Source: Escherichia coli O157:H7
GTDB lineage: Bacteria > Pseudomonadota > Gammaproteobacteria > Enterobacterales > Enterobacteriaceae
DNA length: 64,000 bases
Assembly (NCBI RefSeq): GCF_013167455.1
Contig: NZ_CP038328.1
Direction: 5' to 3' (one strand)
Shown here: positions 13,289 through 41,137 of the stretch, piece by piece
How the letters are laid out: every line of letters begins with the position of its first letter
Position numbering within the stretch: the stretch's first letter is position 1
Notes under the pieces: model-generated
The model's database searches: none
What the model was told of the DNA's origin: nothing
The model's input: the letters and a program-made list of their open reading frames with translations, nothing else
Translations under genes and position numbers: made by a program

Positions 13289-13387
13289 GCCTGATGCGGC
13301 GTGAACGCCTTATCAGGCCTACAAAATCATGCAAATTCAACATATTGCATAAACCACGTAGGCCTGATAAGCGTAGCGCATCAGGCA
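13289..13387. repeat. BIME: two REP elements in inverted orientation
   Basis: gcctgatgcggcgtgaacgccttatcaggcctac (13289-13322) and gtaggcctgataagcgtagcgcatcaggca (13358-13387) match the enterobacterial REP consensus. Confidence 0.85.
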
Positions 13388-27737: not shown

Positions 27738-29822
27738 ATGGAAAGCAAACGTCTGGATAATGCCGCGCTGGCGGCGGGGATTAGCCCTCATTACATCAAT
27801 GCCCACGGTAAACCGCAGTCGATTAGCGCCGAAACCAAACGGCGTTTGCTTGACGCGATGCATCAACGTACCGCCACGAAAGTGGCGGTAACGCCAGTCC
27901 CGAATGTCATGGTTTATACCAGCGGCAAAAAAATGCCGATGGTGGTGGAGGGCAGCGGCGAATATAGCTGGCTGCTGACCACCGAAGAAGGAACGCAGTA
28001 CAAAGGCCATATAACGGGGGGCAAAGCGTTCAATCTACCGACGAAGCTGCCGGAAGGTTATCACACGCTGACGCTTACCCAGGAAGACCAGCGCGGGCAT
28101 TGCAGGGTGATTGTCGCCCCGAAACGCTGTTACGAACCGCAGGCGTTGCTGAATAAACAAAAGCTGTGGGGTGCCTGCGTCCAGCTTTATACGCTGCGAT
28201 CGGAAAAAAACTGGGGTATTGGGGATTTTGGCGATCTCAAAGCGATGCTAGTGGATGTGGCAAAACGTGGCGGATCGTTCATTGGTCTGAACCCGATTCA
28301 TGCGCTCTATCCGGCAAATCCGGAGAGCGCCAGCCCGTATAGCCCGTCTTCTCGCCGCTGGCTGAATGTGATTTATATCGACGTTAACGCCGTCGAAGAT
28401 TTCCATCTTAGCGAAGAGGCTCAGGCCTGGTGGCAGTTGCCGACCACGCAACAGACGCTGCAACAGGCGCGGGATGCCGACTGGGTCGATTACTCCACGG
28501 TTACCGCCCTAAAAATGACAGCATTACGAATGGCGTGGAAAGGTTTCGCGCAACGTGATGATGAGCAGATGGCCGCGTTTCGCCAGTTTGTTGCAGATCA
28601 AGGCGACAGCCTGTTCTGGCAGGCAGCCTTTGATGCGCTACATGCCCAGCAAGTGAAAGAGGACGAAATGCGCTGGGGCTGGCCTGCATGGCCAGAGATG
28701 TATCAGAACGTGGATTCACCAGAAGTGCGTCAGTTCTGCGAAGAACATCGCGATGACGTTGATTTTTATCTCTGGTTGCAGTGGCAGGCTTACAGCCAGT
28801 TTGCCGCCTGCTGGGAGATAAGCCAGGGCTATGAAATGCCGATTGGCTTGTATCGTGATCTGGCGGTTGGCGTAGCGGAAGGTGGGGCGGAAACCTGGTG
28901 CGACCGTGAACTGTATTGCCTGAAAGCGTCGGTTGGCGCGCCGCCGGATATCCTCGGCCCGTTGGGGCAGAACTGGGGATTGCCGCCAATGGACCCGCAT
29001 ATCATCACCGCGCGTGCTTATGAACCGTTTATCGAGCTGTTGCGTGCCAATATGCAAAACTGCGGCGCATTACGAATTGACCATGTGATGTCGATGCTGC
29101 GTTTGTGGTGGATACCGTATGGCGAGACGGCAGATCAGGGCGCGTATGTTCACTATCCGGTGGATGATCTGCTCTCGATTCTGGCACTCGAAAGTAAACG
29201 TCATCGCTGTATGGTGATTGGTGAAGATCTCGGTACCGTACCGGTAGAGATTGTCGGTAAGCTGCGCAGCAGCGGTGTGTACTCCTACAAAGTGCTCTAT
29301 TTCGAAAACGACCACGAGAAGACGTTCCGTGCACCGAAAGCGTATCCGGAGCAGTCGATGGCGGTTGCGGCGACACATGACCTGCCTACGCTACGCGGCT
29401 ACTGGGAGAGCGGGGATCTAACGCTGGGCAAAACCCTGGGGCTGTATCCGGATGAAGTGGTACTGCGCGGTCTGTATCAGGATCGCGAACTGGCGAAGCA
29501 AGGGCTGCTGGATGCACTGCATAAATATGGTTGTCTGCCAAAACGTGCCGGGCATAAGGCATCGTTGATGTCGATGACGCCGACGCTTAATCGTGGTTTG
29601 CAGCGCTACATTGCCGACAGTAACAGTGCTCTGTTAGGACTACAGCCGGAAGACTGGCTGGATATGGCCGAACCGGTGAATATTCCTGGCACCAGTTACC
29701 AGTATAAAAACTGGCGACGCAAGCTTTCCGCAACGCTTGAGACGATGTTTGCCGATGATGGCGTGAACAAGTTGCTGAAGGATTTGGACAGACGGCGCAG
29801 AGCTGCAGCGAAGAAGAAGTAG
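27738..29822 (+). CDS. malQ: 4-alpha-glucanotransferase (amylomaltase)
   Basis: 694-aa ORF, MESKRLDNAALAAGISPHYINAHGKPQ... Confidence 0.97.
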   Translation: MESKRLDNAALAAGISPHYINAHGKPQSISAETKRRLLDAMHQRTATKVAVTPVPNVMVYTSGKKMPMVVEGSGEYSWLLTTEEGTQYKGHITGGKAFNLPTKLPEGYHTLTLTQEDQRGHCRVIVAPKRCYEPQALLNKQKLWGACVQLYTLRSEKNWGIGDFGDLKAMLVDVAKRGGSFIGLNPIHALYPANPESASPYSPSSRRWLNVIYIDVNAVEDFHLSEEAQAWWQLPTTQQTLQQARDADWVDYSTVTALKMTALRMAWKGFAQRDDEQMAAFRQFVADQGDSLFWQAAFDALHAQQVKEDEMRWGWPAWPEMYQNVDSPEVRQFCEEHRDDVDFYLWLQWQAYSQFAACWEISQGYEMPIGLYRDLAVGVAEGGAETWCDRELYCLKASVGAPPDILGPLGQNWGLPPMDPHIITARAYEPFIELLRANMQNCGALRIDHVMSMLRLWWIPYGETADQGAYVHYPVDDLLSILALESKRHRCMVIGEDLGTVPVEIVGKLRSSGVYSYKVLYFENDHEKTFRAPKAYPEQSMAVAATHDLPTLRGYWESGDLTLGKTLGLYPDEVVLRGLYQDRELAKQGLLDALHKYGCLPKRAGHKASLMSMTPTLNRGLQRYIADSNSALLGLQPEDWLDMAEPVNIPGTSYQYKNWRRKLSATLETMFADDGVNKLLKDLDRRRRAAAKKK

Positions 29823-34776: not shown

Positions 34777-35013
34777 TTAACGCAGCGCCCACCACTCGCG
34801 CAGACAGGCTTTTCCTTCCGGGCAGCTTTTACAACTGCCGGAGAGGCAGCCGTCAGGTTCTTCCTGAATCCGCACGGCTTTGCCCATACTTTCCAGTTGT
34901 TGCAGCATGGCGTTAATCATTGGCTGTGGAGTGTTCAATGTCTGGCTTATCTGGGCCGCTTCCATACGGCCCCGTAACGCCAGCAAATCACGCACCTGAA
35001 TAAGTGAAGCCAT
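34777..35013 (-). CDS. feoC: ferrous iron transport protein C (putative [Fe-S] transcriptional regulator)
   Basis: 78 aa, [39 protein letters not shown]...; start trimmed from ORF-track 35022. Confidence 0.9.
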
Positions 35014-37334
35014 TAATGGCAATCACCGGTGGTGCTGGCTGCGCAGCAACTACTTACCGACTTGCGGGTTGCCAGCAGTTCGATATCCACCCGGCTACGC
35101 GCGCGGCGCAGCAGACCGATAACCACGATGTTAAACAGGATAACCGCCAGAATGCACACCAGGCTGTAAGTTGGGTGCTGACTGTAGCTGGCGACTTGAT
35201 AGAACAATGTTGCCAGTGAGTAAGCGATATTCAGCCCCCACAGGATGGAGAAGCCCATCCAGCCACGGCTTGATTCACGGGCGATGGCTCCCATCACCGA
35301 GATACATGGTACATACAGCAGGACGAAAATCAGGTAGCTGTATGCGGCAGCTGCGCTACCGAATTTCTGATCCATCACGCCCATCGCCCCGGTACCCATT
35401 TCGCCGTCGCCTTTGCTAGCTTCAATGGGGTTCATCAGTACGCTAAGGCTGAAGGTGTCTTTCAGGCTCTGCCAGGTTTCATCTACCGCGCTGAACAACT
35501 CTTCACCGAGGTTAAATTCCGCCGGATTGAACTCTTCGTCCTGAATATTTTCTGCGGTGTAGAGGGTGTTGAGCGTACCCACCACCACTTCTTTCGCCAT
35601 TGCACCCGTAAACAGGCCAACTGTTGCCTGCCAGTTATCTTCATGCACGCCAATCGGCTTGAAGACCGGGGTGATCACCCGGCTGACGGAAGCCAGCGCC
35701 GAGTCGTTGATGTTATCGACGATTTTCCCGCTCAACGAGAAGCTGTTGAAAGCGCTCAGGAAAATGCTGACGATGATAATCACTTTACCAGCACGCAGAA
35801 CGAAGCCTTTCAGACGCTGCCAGGTCTGGATAATCAGGCTTTTAACGTGTGGTACATGGTAGACCGGCAGCTCCATGACAAACGGCGTCGCTTCACCGCG
35901 CATGATGGTGTACTTGAGCATCAGGCCAGTCAGCACCGCCATCACGATACCGAGCATATACAGCGAGAAGACCGCCAGCGCACCGTTCTGCCCGAAGAAG
36001 GCAGCCGCGAATACTGCGAAGATAGCCAGACGCGCGCCGCAGGACATAAACGGTGCCATCATGATGGTCATCAGACGTTCACGCGGTGCATCAAGCGTAC
36101 GTGCACCCATTACCGACGGTACGTTACAACCGAAACCGACGATCAGCGGCACAAAGGATTTCCCCGGCAAGCCCAGCGCCTGCATCAGGCGGTCCATCAC
36201 AAACGCCGCACGCGCCATATAGCCGGAGTCCTCAAGGAAGGAGAGGAACAGGTACATCATGCCGATCTGCGGCACCAGTGGCAGCACGGTGTTAATACCG
36301 CCACCCAGGCCCTGGGCGAGGAAGATAGTCAGCCAGTCCGGGAAGTGGAGCGTGTAGCCAATCCATTGAATACCATGCACAAATAGAGCCACGGAGCCGA
36401 CGTCAAACAGCGGCTGTAACGCCCCGCCGATGTTGATAGCCAGCAGGAACATCAGGTACATCACAAAGAGGAAAATCGGCAGACCGAGGAAACGGTTGAG
36501 CACGATTTTATCTACCGCAGTGGTGAAACGGCTGGGTTCTGCCGTCAGGGTGTTGCTTACCACATCACAGATGGCAGCAATGCACTGGTAACGCGCATCG
36601 GCAATGTGCAGCGCCGGATCGTCCATCTCATTACGCAGACGGGCGAGGGCGGCATCAAGATGCTGCGACGCTTCACCGGCGTAGGCGCGGCTGTAGATAT
36701 CGCCTTCCAGCATTTGCAGGCCCAGCCAGCGACGTTGTTTCAGCGGGATGTCGGAAGGCATCACTTTTGCCAGTGAATCTGCTTCGTTGAGTAGCGGCTG
36801 TGCGTAATGCACCAGTTCCACATTCTCGTTAGCTTTATAGCGATCAATCGCCAGCTTGAGCGCTTCAATACCGCGACCACGGGTTGAAACCAGCGGGATC
36901 ACTGGGCAGCCAAGACGCGCCGACAGAGCATCAATTTCAATACGAATATTTTGCTTCTCGGCAATGTCGAGCATGTTCAGTGCCACGATGCAGGGAATGC
37001 CGAGTTCCAGCAGTTGTAGCGTCAGGTACAGGTTACGCTCAAGGTTAGACGCATCCACCACGTTAATCAGCAGGTCGGCGTCGCCACTCAAAATGTAGTG
37101 ACAGGCGATTTGCTCATCGAGCGAGGTCTGCGATGAGATGGTGGTCAGAGAATAGGTGCCGGGCAGGTCCACCAGCGTGACCTGATGATCGGTGGTGGAG
37201 AATTGCCCTTCTTTACGTTCGACGGTAACGCCAGCCCAGTTACCTACACGCTGACGTGCGCCAGTGAGCTGGTTAAATAAGGTTGTCTTGCCAGAATTTG
37301 GATTACCAATTAAGCCTATGGTTAATTTTTTCAT
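35013..37334 (-). CDS. feoB: ferrous iron transporter, GTPase-coupled permease
   Basis: 773 aa, [25 protein letters not shown]... (G-protein domain plus polytopic membrane domain); start trimmed from 37346. Confidence 0.96.
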
Positions 37335-37350
37335 TGTTGTTATCACCGTA

Positions 37351-37578
37351 TTAACAGGAAACCGCTTCCACTTCTAATAAGGCCAGATCTTTTTTGCGTA
37401 ATACCAGGCTCACACGACGGGTTTCGATATGAATGGGGTCGCCGAGTGGAGCGACGCGCACCACATTAAAAGAGGAGCCAGGTAACATGCCAAGAGAAAG
37501 CAGTTTTTGGCGATATGCCGGGCTGATTTCACGGGAAAAGCCAGTGATTTTCCACGCAGTATCTGGAGTGTATTGCAT
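37351..37578 (-). CDS. feoA: ferrous iron transport protein A
   Basis: 75-aa [37 protein letters not shown]... Confidence 0.95.
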
Positions 37579-37689
37579 AGGTGCCTACTTGTTTCTCATT
37601 AACTGGATAACTACCTCATGGGGCGTTTGACAGCGACATGAGACCAGATGATTTGCCAACGAAGGAGAGATTAAATAATCAATAGTACA

Positions 37690-37708
37690 ATGATAATGAG
37701 AATGGTTT
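37690..37708. promoter_or_regulatory. Fur box-like sequence upstream of feoABC
   Basis: acaATGATAATGAgAATggtt contains TGATAATGA, close to the Fur consensus core GATAATGATAATCATTATC; feo is known to be Fur-repressed. Confidence 0.5.
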
Positions 37709-37767
37709 CTATCAGCAATACTTAAAATGTGTGCGAATGTTGGTTTGAATAATAATCTGACTCAATG

Positions 37768-37781
37768 TTGATGTGGCTCAA
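37768..37781. promoter_or_regulatory. FNR-like site upstream of feoABC
   Basis: TTGAT-gtgg-CTCAA versus the FNR consensus TTGAT-N4-ATCAA. Confidence 0.4.
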
Positions 37782-37915
37782 GGTTATATCGCAGCGAAAA
37801 TATAATTCGAATAGCGAATTACCAGGACTGGCTAATGTTTAATTAAGGTTTCAGTTGTTAATGAAGTGATAAATATTAACGAAATATATTGTGAGTTTGG
37901 CTGTGGAATAAATAT

Positions 37916-37987
37916 GCCGGAGATATTCTCCGGCACTTTTATGTCAGGCAAGGCGTTCGTTGCCAGATGCGGCGTGAACGCCTTATC
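37916..37987. repeat. hairpin (gccggagatattctccggc) plus REP element downstream of tex
   Basis: Perfect inverted repeat at 37916-37934 followed by an AT-rich tract on the minus strand (likely tex terminator); REP-consensus sequence gccagatgcggcgtgaacgccttatc at 37962-37987. Confidence 0.6.
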
Positions 37988-38015
37988 GCGCAGGTTTAGG
38001 GGCCAGTCCGGGCGT

Positions 38016-40337
38016 TTAACGTTTTTTGCCCATTGCTGCCGCCAGCGCGTCCATCATCGCGCTGTTACCGGCAGGCTGCGCTTCACGACCGCGTGGTTTG
38101 GCTGCCGGGCGGTTGTTTTGCGGGCGATCGTTACCGCCGCCGCGACGAGAGTTGGTTTCGCCAGGCTGCTCGTCCAGACGCATAGTCAGGGCGATACGTT
38201 TACGCTGAAGATCCACTTCCAGCACTTTCACCTTCACAATGTCGCCCGCTTTCACCACGGTATGCGGATCTTCCACAAACTTGTTCGACAATGAAGAGAT
38301 GTGAACCAGGCCGTCCTGATGCACGCCGATATCGACAAACGCGCCAAAGTTGGTGACGTTGGTGACAGCGCCTTCGAGGATCATACCCGGTTGCAGGTCG
38401 TTCATTGTCTCGACGCCATCGGCAAACTGAGCGGTTTTAAATTCCGGACGCGGATCGCGACCCGGTTTTTCCAGCTCTTTGATGATGTCAGTTACTGTCG
38501 GCACACCGAATTTTTCATCAGTAAAGTCAGACGCTTTCAGGTTACGCAGTTCGCTGCTGTTACCCATCAGATCTTTCAGTGCCTGCTGTGTTGCTGCCAG
38601 AATGCGTTCCACCACCGGATAGGCTTCCGGGTGAACGGTAGAGGCGTCCAGCGGGTTGTCACCGTGGTTAATGCGCAGGAAGCCCGCGCACTGCTCGAAG
38701 GCTTTCGGCCCCAGACGGCTGACTTTCAGCAGTTGCTGACGGTTCTGGAACTGGCCGTTCTCATCGCGCCAGGCCACGATGTTTTGCGCCATCATTCGCG
38801 TCAGGCCCGCCACGCGAGTTAATAGCGGAACAGAAGCGGTGTTGAGATCGACGCCAACGGCGTTTACGCAGTCTTCTACTACTGCATCCAGTTTGCGGGC
38901 CAGTTGCGTCTGGCTGACGTCATGCTGATACTGACCTACGCCGATAGATTTCGGATCGATTTTCACCAGCTCCGCCAGCGGATCCTGCAAACGGCGGGCG
39001 ATAGAAACCGCGCCACGCAGCGAAACGTCGAGATCCGGGAACTCCTGCGCTGCCAGCTCGGAAGCCGAGTAAACCGACGCGCCAGCTTCGCTGACGATCA
39101 CTTTCTGTGCGGTCACTTTCGGGAACTGCTTCTGCACGTCGAGATAGAAACGTTCGGTTTCGCGGGAAGCTGTACCGTTGCCGATCGCCACCAGTTCAAC
39201 GTTATGCTTTTCACACAGCGCAGCAACAGTCATCGCTGCTTTTGCGGCTTGTCCGGTGTGCGGGTAAATGGTATCGGTCGCTACCAGTTTGCCAGTGGCA
39301 TCGACCACCGCCACTTTTACCCCGGTACGCAGACCCGGATCGAGGCCCATCGTTGCACGCAGTCCGGCAGGGGCAGCCATCAGCAGATCGTGCAGGTTAC
39401 GGGCAAAGACGTTGATTGCTTCATTTTCCGCACGTTCGCGCACGGTGCCCATCAGTTCGGTTTCCAGATGCATCAGCACCTTGATGCGCCACGTCCAGCT
39501 CACCACGCCTTTGCGCCAGCTATCCGCCGGGGCATTGTTCAGGCGCAGGCCAAGGTGATCCATGATGATTTGCTCGCAATAGCTCTCTTTGGGCGGCTCA
39601 TCGAACTGTGGATCGGCATTCAGCGAAAGCTGAAGTACGCCTTCGTTACGCCCACGGAACATCGCCAGCGCGCGGTGAGAAGGCACCGTGGACAACGGTT
39701 CGTGATGATCGAAATAGTCGCGGAATTTCGCCCCTTCCTCTTCTTTACCGCTCACCACCGTAGAAACCAAATGCGCGTTCTTCCACAGATAATCACGCAC
39801 TTTCGCCAGCAGCGCGGCATCTTCGGCAAACCGTTCCATCAGGATATAGCGCGCGCCGTCCAGCGCGGCTTTGGTATCTGCCACGCCTTTATCGGCATCA
39901 ATATATTGCGCAGCGGCGACTTCTGGCGTGTGTGACGGATCGCTCCACAGCAGGTCAGCCAACGGCTCAAGCCCTGCTTCAATGGCGATTTGCCCGCGGG
40001 TGCGGCGTTTAGGTTTGTAGGGCAGGTAGAGGTCTTCGAGTTCGGTTTTGCTTAGGGTGGCGTTGATGGCATTCGCCAGATCATCGGTGAGTTTGCCTTG
40101 CTCGGAAATGGACTTGAGGATCGCCTGACGTCTCTCTTCCAGCTCGCGCAGGTATCCCAGACGCGTTTCCAGATTACGCAGCTGCGTGTCATCCAGACCG
40201 CCGGTGATTTCCTTACGATAACGTGCAATAAAAGGCACGGTATTCCCTTCGTCAAGCAGGCGAACGGCAGCGTCAACCTGTTCCGGGCGCGCCTGAATTT
40301 CACCCGCAATAATGCGGCAGAACGAATCATTCATCAT
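38016..40337 (-). CDS. tex: transcription accessory protein Tex (YhgF), S1 and YqgF/RNase H-like domains
   Basis: 773-aa [46 protein letters not shown]... Confidence 0.95.
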
Positions 40338-40910: not shown

Positions 40911-41137
40911 CTCGTTGATTCCCTTTGTCTGTTTGATAATGCGCACATTGGGTATAACGTGATCATATCAACAGAATCAATAATGTTTCGCCGAATAAAT
41001 TGTATACTTAAGCTGCTGTTTAATATGCTTTGTAACAATTTAGGCTGAAATTCATACCAGATTTAGCTGGTGACGAACGTGAGCTTTTTTAAGAATACAC
41101 GCTTACAAATTGTTGCGAACCTTTGGGAGTACAAACA

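Follow-up and report, generated by a model that had tools for sequence, protein, structure and literature searches.

The spacer between tex and feoA in Escherichia coli raises the question of which of its elements control feoABC and which belong to the gene upstream. We analyzed this spacer in a window of 64,000 nucleotides (the whole stretch of DNA under study) from an E. coli O157-type chromosome, in which tex (40337..38016), feoA (37578..37351), and feoB (37346..35013) all lie on the minus strand. The initial annotation, made from the sequence alone, had read about 430 bp upstream of feo as a feoABC control region lying 3′ of tex. The spacer, 37579-38015, measures 437 bp, and genome annotation agrees with this placement, with yhgF (tex) upstream and feoABC downstream. 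We conclude, with a probability of roughly 0.93, that the spacer consists of two parts: the 3′ end of tex and the known feoABC control region with its FNR and Fur sites.

Locus and promoter

The spacer is bounded by two codons:

38016..38018, minus strand: stop codon TAA of tex (yhgF; open reading frame 38016..40337; Tex family protein in RefSeq); the spacer begins at 38015
37576..37578, minus strand: start codon of feoA, from the translation and the RefSeq entry for feoA (WP_001200455.1)

In a matching O157 genome, the RefSeq gene order, read in the feo sense, is ompR, greB, yhgF (Tex family protein), the spacer, feoA, feoB, feoC, and rpnA. Many O157:H7 chromosomes contain the 437-bp query at 100% identity, and 5425 of 5426 complete E. 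coli genomes carry the region. We rejected the small open reading frames within the spacer (a 24-aa frame with a TTG start at 37659..37585 and others of 25, 39, and 142 aa) as coding sequences. The 24-aa frame has no visible ribosome-binding site in front of it, and indels in the leader alignment are not multiples of three, which argues against coding.

Published K-12 data were transferred to the window by coordinate mapping. The FNR and ArcA sites independently gave the same offset of 1978 between old and current K-12 numbering, and a two-sequence alignment contained zero indels from the terminator to the feoA ATG; the mapping is therefore exact. Mean column identity between the K-12 and window spacers is 96% overall, indels included.

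The promoter elements are as follows:

37713..37718, minus strand: −35 hexamer TTGCTG, given as gtaTTGCTGatag with a spacer of 17 in the supplement of PMC2760140; TTGnnG in 77/80 loci
37690..37695, minus strand: −10 hexamer TATCAT, given as tctcATTATCATtgtg in PMC2760140; TATCAT in 68/80 loci
37683, minus strand: transcription start, 105 nt before the feoA ATG, from high-throughput 5′ mapping (PMC2760140)

According to Mendoza-Vargas et al. (2009; PMC2760140, supplement), the feoA transcript begins 105 nt before the ATG, with a promoter spacer of 17; the mapped start at 37683 comes from this one high-throughput 5′-end record. The ArcA site position of −191 to −171 from the start given by Park et al. 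(2013; PMC3798270) implies a start at 37684. A generic sigma-70 scan of the region called no promoter, since the true −35 hexamer, TTGCTG, matches at just three of six positions. Relative to K-12, the O157-type allele carries three SNPs at −3, −2, and +1 (37686, 37685, and 37683), while the FNR site, Fur cluster, −35, and −10 are identical in the two. Comparison with published feo promoter mapping, which had been proposed as a check, thus yields a promoter TTGCTG-17-TATCAT with a start at 37683 and matching FNR and Fur sites. The promoter, the start, the ArcA/OmpR site, the weaker Fur box, and the NagC-like palindrome described below were all absent from the initial annotation.

Fur and FNR sites

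Two Fur elements lie at or upstream of this promoter:

37683..37716, unstranded: main Fur operator cluster covering −35, spacer, −10, and +1, with a mapped ChIP-exo peak and sites of 13.4 and 10.9 bits
37748..37766, unstranded: weaker upstream Fur box centered at about 37757 (about −74), published at 10.5 bits (PMC2189734)

The iron-box candidate originally proposed at 37690-37708 reads ATGATAATGAGAATGGTTT and sits within GATAAT-GAGAAT-GGTTTC. Compared with the 19-bp consensus GATAATGATAATCATTATC, the cluster contains three matches at 6-bp phasing (13/19, 13/19, and 12/19), the best register being 37692-37710 (GATAATGAGAATGGTTTCT; 13/19). When read as three contiguous hexamers, TACAAT GATAAT GAGAAT scores 15/18 and is among the top three positions of the window; the doubled half-site TGANAATGANAAT has its sole exact match in the 64 kb window here. 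A plain consensus score of 13/19 is not significant alone (P ~0.18 when this stretch, 65% A+T, is shuffled), and 16 window positions reach it. We therefore called Fur sites from the published model, ChIP-exo, and conservation rather than from plain consensus counts. The upstream box matches the plain consensus at 9/19 positions, counted by eye, and its CAAATTAT is moderately conserved in a 24-species alignment.

The model of Chen et al. (2007; PMC2189734), which rests on 24 proven sites (the weakest at 10.1 bits) and uses a cutoff of 10 bits, places overlapping sites of 10.9 and 13.4 bits here together with the separate 10.5-bit site. Kammler et al. (1993), as cited there, had drawn two Fur boxes, and each site cluster covers one of them. 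In the window, the 13.4-bit site centers on 37698, the 10.9-bit site on 37704, and the 10.5-bit site on 37757; the candidate iron box centers on 37699. In K-12, Gao et al. (2023; PMC10164565) reported a Fur ChIP-exo peak for feoA at 3538047-3538080, observed in iron-replete cells only. Given the offset of 1978 and the lack of indels, this peak corresponds to 37716..37683. The candidate therefore lies inside the K-12 Fur footprint, on the 13.4- and 10.9-bit sites, with published scores above rather than below threshold. The −35 (37713-37718), the −10 (37690-37695), and the +1 (37683) all overlap the cluster at 37683-37716, and such coverage from −35 through +1 is a classical occlusion arrangement. 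Beauchene et al. (2015; PMC4676285) found that a K-12 feoA-lacZ fusion was repressed by Fur in anaerobic growth only and ascribed this restriction to activation by ArcA and FNR; the anaerobic and iron control of feo assumed at the outset is thus documented.

Upstream of both Fur elements lies the FNR site:

37768..37781, unstranded: FNR binding site TTGAGCCACATCAA, centered at −91.5 from the mapped start, PWM rank 1, identical to the ChIP-bound K-12 site

The plus-strand sequence of this site is TTGATGTGGCTCAA; read in the feo direction, it is TTGAGCCACATCAA. It had been located to the exact base and described as a half-palindrome; the location stands, whereas the description does not, because 9/10 consensus positions of TTGAT-N4-ATCAA are present and the site is a full palindrome. 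We scored it with a symmetrised, leave-one-out PWM derived from the 62 other ChIP-bound sites of Table S6 of Myers et al. (2013; PMC3688515). The feo site scored 15.65 bits, close to the median of the bound training sites (15.7; range 12.0-21.8 bits), and was the highest-scoring position anywhere in the 64 kb window. Shuffling the 64 kb window yields 0.15 hits at or above 15.65 bits, and 0.28% of shuffles of the 437-bp region reach this score (P = 0.003); the bare pattern TTGA-N6-TCAA has an expectation of 1.26 per shuffled window. Exactly this 14-mer is listed for feoA by Myers et al. (Table S6; PatSer 14.6 bits) under a K-12 FNR ChIP-seq peak, with no nucleoid-protein overlap recorded. A second FNR-like match at 37866-37879 scored 10.35 bits and was not counted, as it falls below the lowest training site (12.0 bits).

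We surveyed conservation in 80 Enterobacteriaceae loci, found by a FeoA scan with one genome per species. tex lies upstream of feoA in 75/80 loci, i.e., those with a detectable tex 3′ end, and the tex-feoA spacer ranges from 256 to 745 bp. The block TTGnnG-ATAGAAACCATTCTCAT-TATCAT, whose 17-bp spacer carries the Fur box, was present in 80/81 sequences; the promoter-plus-Fur core forms a near-invariant 33-bp block in the 80 loci. The −10 hexamer is TATCAT in 68 loci and TACCAT or TATTAT in the other 12. For each locus, we took the best FNR-like site between −140 and −50. In 77/80 loci, this site is centered at −91.5 (55 loci) or −90.5 (22 loci); a 10-bp deletion that keeps the helical face puts it at −81.5 in one further locus, and the two Cedecea loci lack it. 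The FNR-like site scores at least 12 bits in 64 loci.

The center of the FNR site, −91.5 from the start at 37683, falls outside the class II range of −41.5 ± 4. Natural FNR activation from −61.5 or farther upstream is rare, and among 23 directly activated promoters with known starts, 19 have FNR at −41.5 ± 4 and one at −60.5 (PMC3688515). Alternatively, FNR might drive a second, unmapped class II promoter, active anaerobically only, that starts near 37733 (~155 nt before the ATG) and has the Fur box at ~37757 as its operator. The prevalence of the −41.5 geometry favors such a promoter, as do the position of the second Fur box between the FNR site and the hypothetical start, the single mapped 5′ end, which may come from other growth conditions, and the report of two promoters for Yersinia pestis feo (PMC5519574). 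However, the would-be −10 (37740-37745, AACCAA) is unlike TATAAT and sits where the alignment is least conserved, and the promoter scan found nothing at that distance. Moreover, the distance from FNR to TATCAT is fixed within 1 bp in 77/80 loci, with one exception of exactly 10 bp, a pattern that fits face-of-helix dependence on the mapped promoter. We consider a class II promoter near 37733 very unlikely and rejected it for want of a conserved −10 at that distance. FNR action on the mapped promoter is thus the preferred reading. Since activation from so far upstream is rare and the helical phase is preserved, the fixed far-upstream position at feo is modestly unusual; it is a reading of known data.

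The 3′ end of tex

Three elements occupy the tex-proximal part of the spacer:

37962..37998, plus strand: decayed REP, GCCAGATGCGGCGTGAACGCCTTATCGCGCAGGTTTAG in plus-strand orientation, just after the tex stop codon, with a 22-nt core matching the canonical REP
37949..37985, minus strand: stable tex 3′ UTR hairpin formed by the REP core and an adjacent inverted copy (AAGGCGTTC / GAACGCCTT), with a 9-nt perfect inverted repeat
37908..37942, minus strand: tex intrinsic-terminator-like hairpin with a core stem at 37914-37936 and tail AUAUUUAUU; the plus strand also reads as a terminator

An exact copy of the 22-nt REP core (37966-37987) is found at 13293-13314, inside a canonical REP at 13289-13322 (GCCTGATGCGGCGTGAACGCCTTATCAGGCCTAC) that belongs to a two-REP BIME-type unit. 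With up to three mismatches allowed, the full REP pattern matched only the copy at 13289 in the window. The copy next to tex reads ...CTTATCGCGCAGGTTTAG where K-12 reads ...CTTATCTGCCCTAC, and K-12 has an intact REP with a CTAC tail and 19 extra bases at this position. Because the 3′ arm and CTAC tail are disrupted here and intact in K-12, we regard the window copy as a REP remnant. Both allele types are common: an O157-type 76-mer is carried at 80% or more by 3547/5426 E. coli genomes. An Rfam search of 37300-38300 at permissive E-values returned nothing at gathering score, the best match being the REP-derived naRNA4 (24.7 vs. 59.5 bits).

The inverted repeat of 37950-37958 with 37976-37984 is complementary at 9/9 positions, and a 10-bp stem of the REP-core hairpin is found in both the MFE and centroid folds. 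A terminator scan identified 10 pairs at 37914-37936, six of them G-C, with a loop of 3 followed by ATATTTATT, and the hairpin at 37908-37942 also appears in the computed fold. The terminator tail, AUAUUUAUU, is interrupted in the O157-type allele, compared to a better U-tract in K-12 (ATTTTTATT / AUUUUUAUU). The 131-nt tex 3′ region as a whole folds at −44 kcal/mol (z = −4.3).

A REP and a terminator hairpin had been proposed at 37916-37987. Both are present, although the REP runs to ~37998, beyond the proposed limit. Their origin in the tex 3′ end was also correctly recognized, but their inclusion in feo control does not hold, as the segment varies across strains and genera. It is this variability, in the one variable part of the spacer, on which we base the assignment to tex, and we read the REP and hairpins as a tex terminator and 3′ stabilizer rather than as feo control elements. 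Binding of gyrase and IHF has been reported for REP elements. This property, the fact that the elements share a spacer with the feo control region, and the weak terminator tail of this allele, which makes some read-through plausible, would suit a role in feo regulation, either as a read-through attenuator coupling feo to tex or as a nucleoid-protein binding site. Against such a role, the segment contains a 19-bp indel between K-12 and O157, the sequences 3′ of tex in other genera are unrelated in the 24-species alignment and embedded in spacers of 256-745 bp while the feo promoter block is conserved instead, and the mapped start lies at least 225 bp downstream of the terminator. We judge a regulatory role of these elements in feo to be highly improbable.

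Upstream elements and the feoA leader

Four further elements lie between the terminator and the promoter:

37855..37875, minus strand: ArcA site, 17.6 bits in K-12, overlapping the OmpR-fragment motif TTATCAnTTCATTAACA, at −192 to −172 from the start (PMC3798270, Tables S3, S4, and S6)
37722..37743, minus strand: conserved box CCAACATTCGCACACATTTTA, an RstA/OmpR-like repeat TACA-N6-(T/C)ACA at about −60 to −39, of a motif proposed in PMC7315122
37832..37853, minus strand: conserved block AAACCTTAATTAAACATTA adjoining the ArcA site, kept in most genera of the 24-species alignment
37803..37821, unstranded: palindrome TAATTCG-N5-CGAATTA, candidate NagC operator, a 7-nt inverted repeat (100% complementary) at −138 to −120

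The palindrome at 37803-37821 is present in Escherichia only and presumably resembles the NagC consensus. Literature tables include NagC among the regulators of feoABC (e.g., PMC3688515), and the palindrome is, from its sequence, a candidate for the NagC operator listed there.

Park et al. (PMC3798270) reported the K-12 ArcA site TTGTTAATGAAATGATAAATA (17.6 bits) under ChIP peaks and a 3.7-fold decrease of feoABC expression in an arcA mutant, i.e., activation by ArcA. Tables in two later papers list ArcA as a negative regulator of feoABC, in conflict with this result. Gerken et al. (2020; PMC7315122) showed that purified OmpR shifts a fragment containing TTATCAtttcaTTAACA (−294 to −278 from the ATG), which maps to 37872..37856 and so overlaps the ArcA site. 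The shared ArcA/OmpR motif carries one SNP relative to K-12, at 37866, and is conserved across genera in the 24-species alignment, as is the TTAATTAAACATTA block beside it. Unphosphorylated OmpR fails to shift a smaller fragment containing CCAACAttcgCACACA (−165 to −150 from the ATG; PMC7315122), which maps to 37743..37728. The box at 37722-37743 is conserved as ACATTCCGTCACATTT across genera in the same alignment.

Downstream of the start, the leader contains two elements:

37604..37647, minus strand: leader stem-loop in which CUCAUG (37637-37642) pairs with CAUGAG (37615-37620), a 6-pair helix in RNAalifold
37584..37590, minus strand: Shine-Dalgarno region AAGTAGG, 5 nt before the ATG and nearly invariant across genera

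Measured from the E. coli start, the leader spans ~100 nt in most genera. In a group comprising Enterobacter, Lelliottia, Leclercia, Huaxiibacter, and Silvania, 14 loci have a leader of only 32-35 nt and lack the hairpin segment. The position of the hairpin is constant while its sequence differs between genera; for example, Escherichia, Citrobacter, and Salmonella have the arms CTCATG/CATGAG, and Phytobacter and Kosakonia have CATGCGC/GCGCATG. In a 26-sequence alignment, 80.5% of cells in the 6-pair helix are paired compared to 67.2% in shuffles, and 35 cells are changed on both sides compared to 15.9. Helix covariation is 0.56 compared to 0.32 in shuffles, with 0/500 shuffles as high and slid controls at 0.08-0.21, in a test made on related sequences with a structure derived from the same alignment. 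Support for the hairpin is therefore comparative, as the E. coli leader alone folds no better than shuffles (z = −0.31). No Rfam family matched the leader hairpin in the scan of 37300-38300, and in literature on sRNA or CsrA control of the feo leader we found only indirect CsrA effects and no description of the hairpin.

It is conceivable, though doubtful, that the ~70-nt middle of the leader (about 37596-37650) forms a so far uncharacterised module of post-transcriptional control, made up of the hairpin and a conserved CAGTTAGCGA box. The hairpin is conserved in position and has diverged in sequence with compensatory changes, with the CAGTTAGCGA box downstream of it; the segment occurs in most genera of the Enterobacteriaceae and is cleanly missing in the Enterobacter/Lelliottia/Leclercia/Silvania clade. 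If real, such a module might set the stability or translation of the feoABC mRNA in response to some signal.

Proposed mechanism and comparison with known systems

The binding and expression data behind the following model all come from K-12, to which the O157-type allele is linked by sequence. The tex-proximal ~110 bp (38015-37908), with the REP remnant, the REP-derived hairpin, and the terminator-like hairpin, most likely end and stabilize the tex transcript and would insulate feo from read-through. The remaining ~330 bp would constitute the feoABC control region. Here, the weak sigma-70 promoter TTGCTG-17-TATCAT, as shown in K-12, is predicted to start transcription at 37683. Fe2+-Fur would occupy the overlapping site array over −35, spacer, −10, and +1, together with the weaker box at ~−74; as the array covers −35 to +1, Fur would block RNA polymerase when iron is plentiful. 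Both occupancy and repression by Fur have been shown in K-12, whose sequence is identical to that found here. Under anoxia, FNR would raise transcription from TTGAGCCACATCAA at −91.5, to which its binding has been shown in K-12, probably by a class I-type contact with the alpha-CTD of RNA polymerase on the correct helical face. We infer this contact rather than regard it as demonstrated, because an FNR site at −91.5 is atypical (19/23 at −41.5 ± 4). Farther upstream, ArcA and OmpR are expected to bind at −192 to −172, and the NagC-like palindrome lies at −138 to −120. The transcript would carry a 105-nt leader with the conserved hairpin.

That the Fur-like and FNR-like matches are merely chance similarity in AT-rich intergenic DNA, without function, would accord with the commonness of simple patterns (Fur 13/19 at 16 window positions and in 18% of region shuffles; TTGA-N6-TCAA expected 1.26 times per shuffled window), but is effectively refuted by the first rank of the FNR site, with 0.15 such scores expected per 64 kb, by the in vivo occupancy of both sites in K-12 at identical sequence, and by their conservation at fixed spacing in about 80 species.

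The region serves as a calibration point: from the letters alone, the FNR site was located exactly and the Fur site to within 1-2 bases. Two features may be of specialist interest: the FNR site held at −91.5/−90.5 across about 80 species, a rare far-upstream geometry, and the covariation-supported leader hairpin that has been lost in one clade.

Among known systems, the feoABC region of Y. pestis (PMC5519574) resembles the present one in having a Fur site that overlaps the promoter and putative FNR and ArcA motifs upstream. Its authors, however, reported that its DNA is not significantly similar to the E. coli region; they also described two promoters, and mutating fnr or arcA had no effect. 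In the Salmonella enterica arizonae and diarizonae loci, the FNR site at −91.5, the Fur/promoter core, and the leader hairpin are all conserved. The box ACATTCCGTCACATTT matches the TACA-N6-TACA type motif reported for the S. enterica feo RstA box (Jeon 2008, as cited in PMC7315122 and PMC5519574); E. coli reads CCAACATTCGCACACA at this position, unlike ACATTCCGTCACATTT, and the corresponding fragment was the one left unshifted by unphosphorylated OmpR (PMC7315122).

The arrangement also resembles class I FNR/CRP promoters. The activator site at ~−91.5 lies ~50 bp, near five helical turns, above the class II position of −41.5, and phase is kept in the 10-bp deletion variant, with its site at −81.5. 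It differs from them in that ArcA and OmpR bind farther upstream and may contribute, and the alpha-CTD contact at feo is our proposal from the geometry.

The closest counterpart is the feoABC promoter region of E. coli K-12, which is the same locus, free of indels from terminator to ATG and identical in FNR site, Fur sites, −35, and −10. The window differs from it in a REP that is 19 bp shorter and decayed, in a weaker terminator U-tract, and in SNPs at 37686, 37685, and 37683 (the start) and at 37866 (the ArcA/OmpR motif). Each element flagged by the initial annotation is already known from the literature and databases for K-12, with almost the same sequence here.

The feoA leader

The leader of feoA carries a hairpin whose position stayed constant across genera while its sequence diverged with compensatory changes, as seen in the across-genera leader alignment.

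37596-37650, minus strand: leader hairpin segment, with core pairs formed by 37637-37642 and 37615-37620

Covariation in the hairpin was 0.56 versus 0.32 in shuffled alignments, none of 500 shuffles scoring as high, and a conserved CAGTTAGCGA box lies 3' of it. The clade of Enterobacter, Lelliottia, Leclercia, and Silvania lacks the whole leader segment of approximately 70 nt, such that leaders are 32-35 nt long in this clade compared to about 100 nt elsewhere. A scan of the locus matched the hairpin to no Rfam family, and we found no published description of it.

Allelic differences and an insertion at the promoter

We observed three SNPs between the feo promoter of the window and that of K-12, at -3, -2, and +1 (within 37683-37686); the +1 nucleotide is A in the window and G in K-12. 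Upstream, the U-tract of the tex terminator is broken by one SNP at 37911 (ATATTTATT in the window vs ATTTTTATT in K-12).

In L083, the feoA locus of E. coli PEC301 (NZ_CM168013.1), the IS30-family element ISApl1 lies inside the feo promoter and cuts feoA off from its FNR and ArcA sites.

Equivalent to ~37716: ISApl1 insertion point in L083, at the -35 element and Fur operator

In about 22 of 5424 genomes, no single place covers at least 80% of the feo control region; L083 is the one of these that was inspected.

Other features in the window

Two repeat features were recorded, one upstream of feoA and one elsewhere in the window:

37803-37821: perfect 7-nt inverted repeat, TAATTCG-N5-CGAATTA
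13289-13378: BIME-type unit of two REPs, the first canonical (GCCTGATGCGGCGTGAACGCCTTATCAGGCCTAC) and the second inverted, joined by a linker

The 7-nt inverted repeat was found in Escherichia only in the cross-genus alignment. Since NagC is named among the feoABC regulators in published lists, this palindrome is a possible NagC operator. The REP of the BIME-type unit served as the reference copy for comparison with the REP at the tex 3' end.

In K-12, a Fur ChIP-exo peak at 3534739-3534772, labelled intergenic and assigned to ompR, is present under both iron conditions (Gao et al., 2023; PMC10164565). By K-12-to-window coordinate mapping, this peak falls at ~40991-41024, where a consensus scan detected no strong Fur box.

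FNR sites and their geometry

The second-highest FNR PWM score in the window (14.43 bits) belongs to a predicted site at 28588-28601, TTGATCTGCAACAA, approximately 9 kb past feoA. The feo FNR site itself (37768-37781) is centred at -91.5 or -90.5 from the transcription start at 37683 in 77 of the 80 Enterobacteriaceae loci compared. It is located at -81.5 in L061, the sole locus with a 10-bp deletion. Such a far-upstream position is a rare geometry for activation by FNR (Myers et al., PMC3688515).
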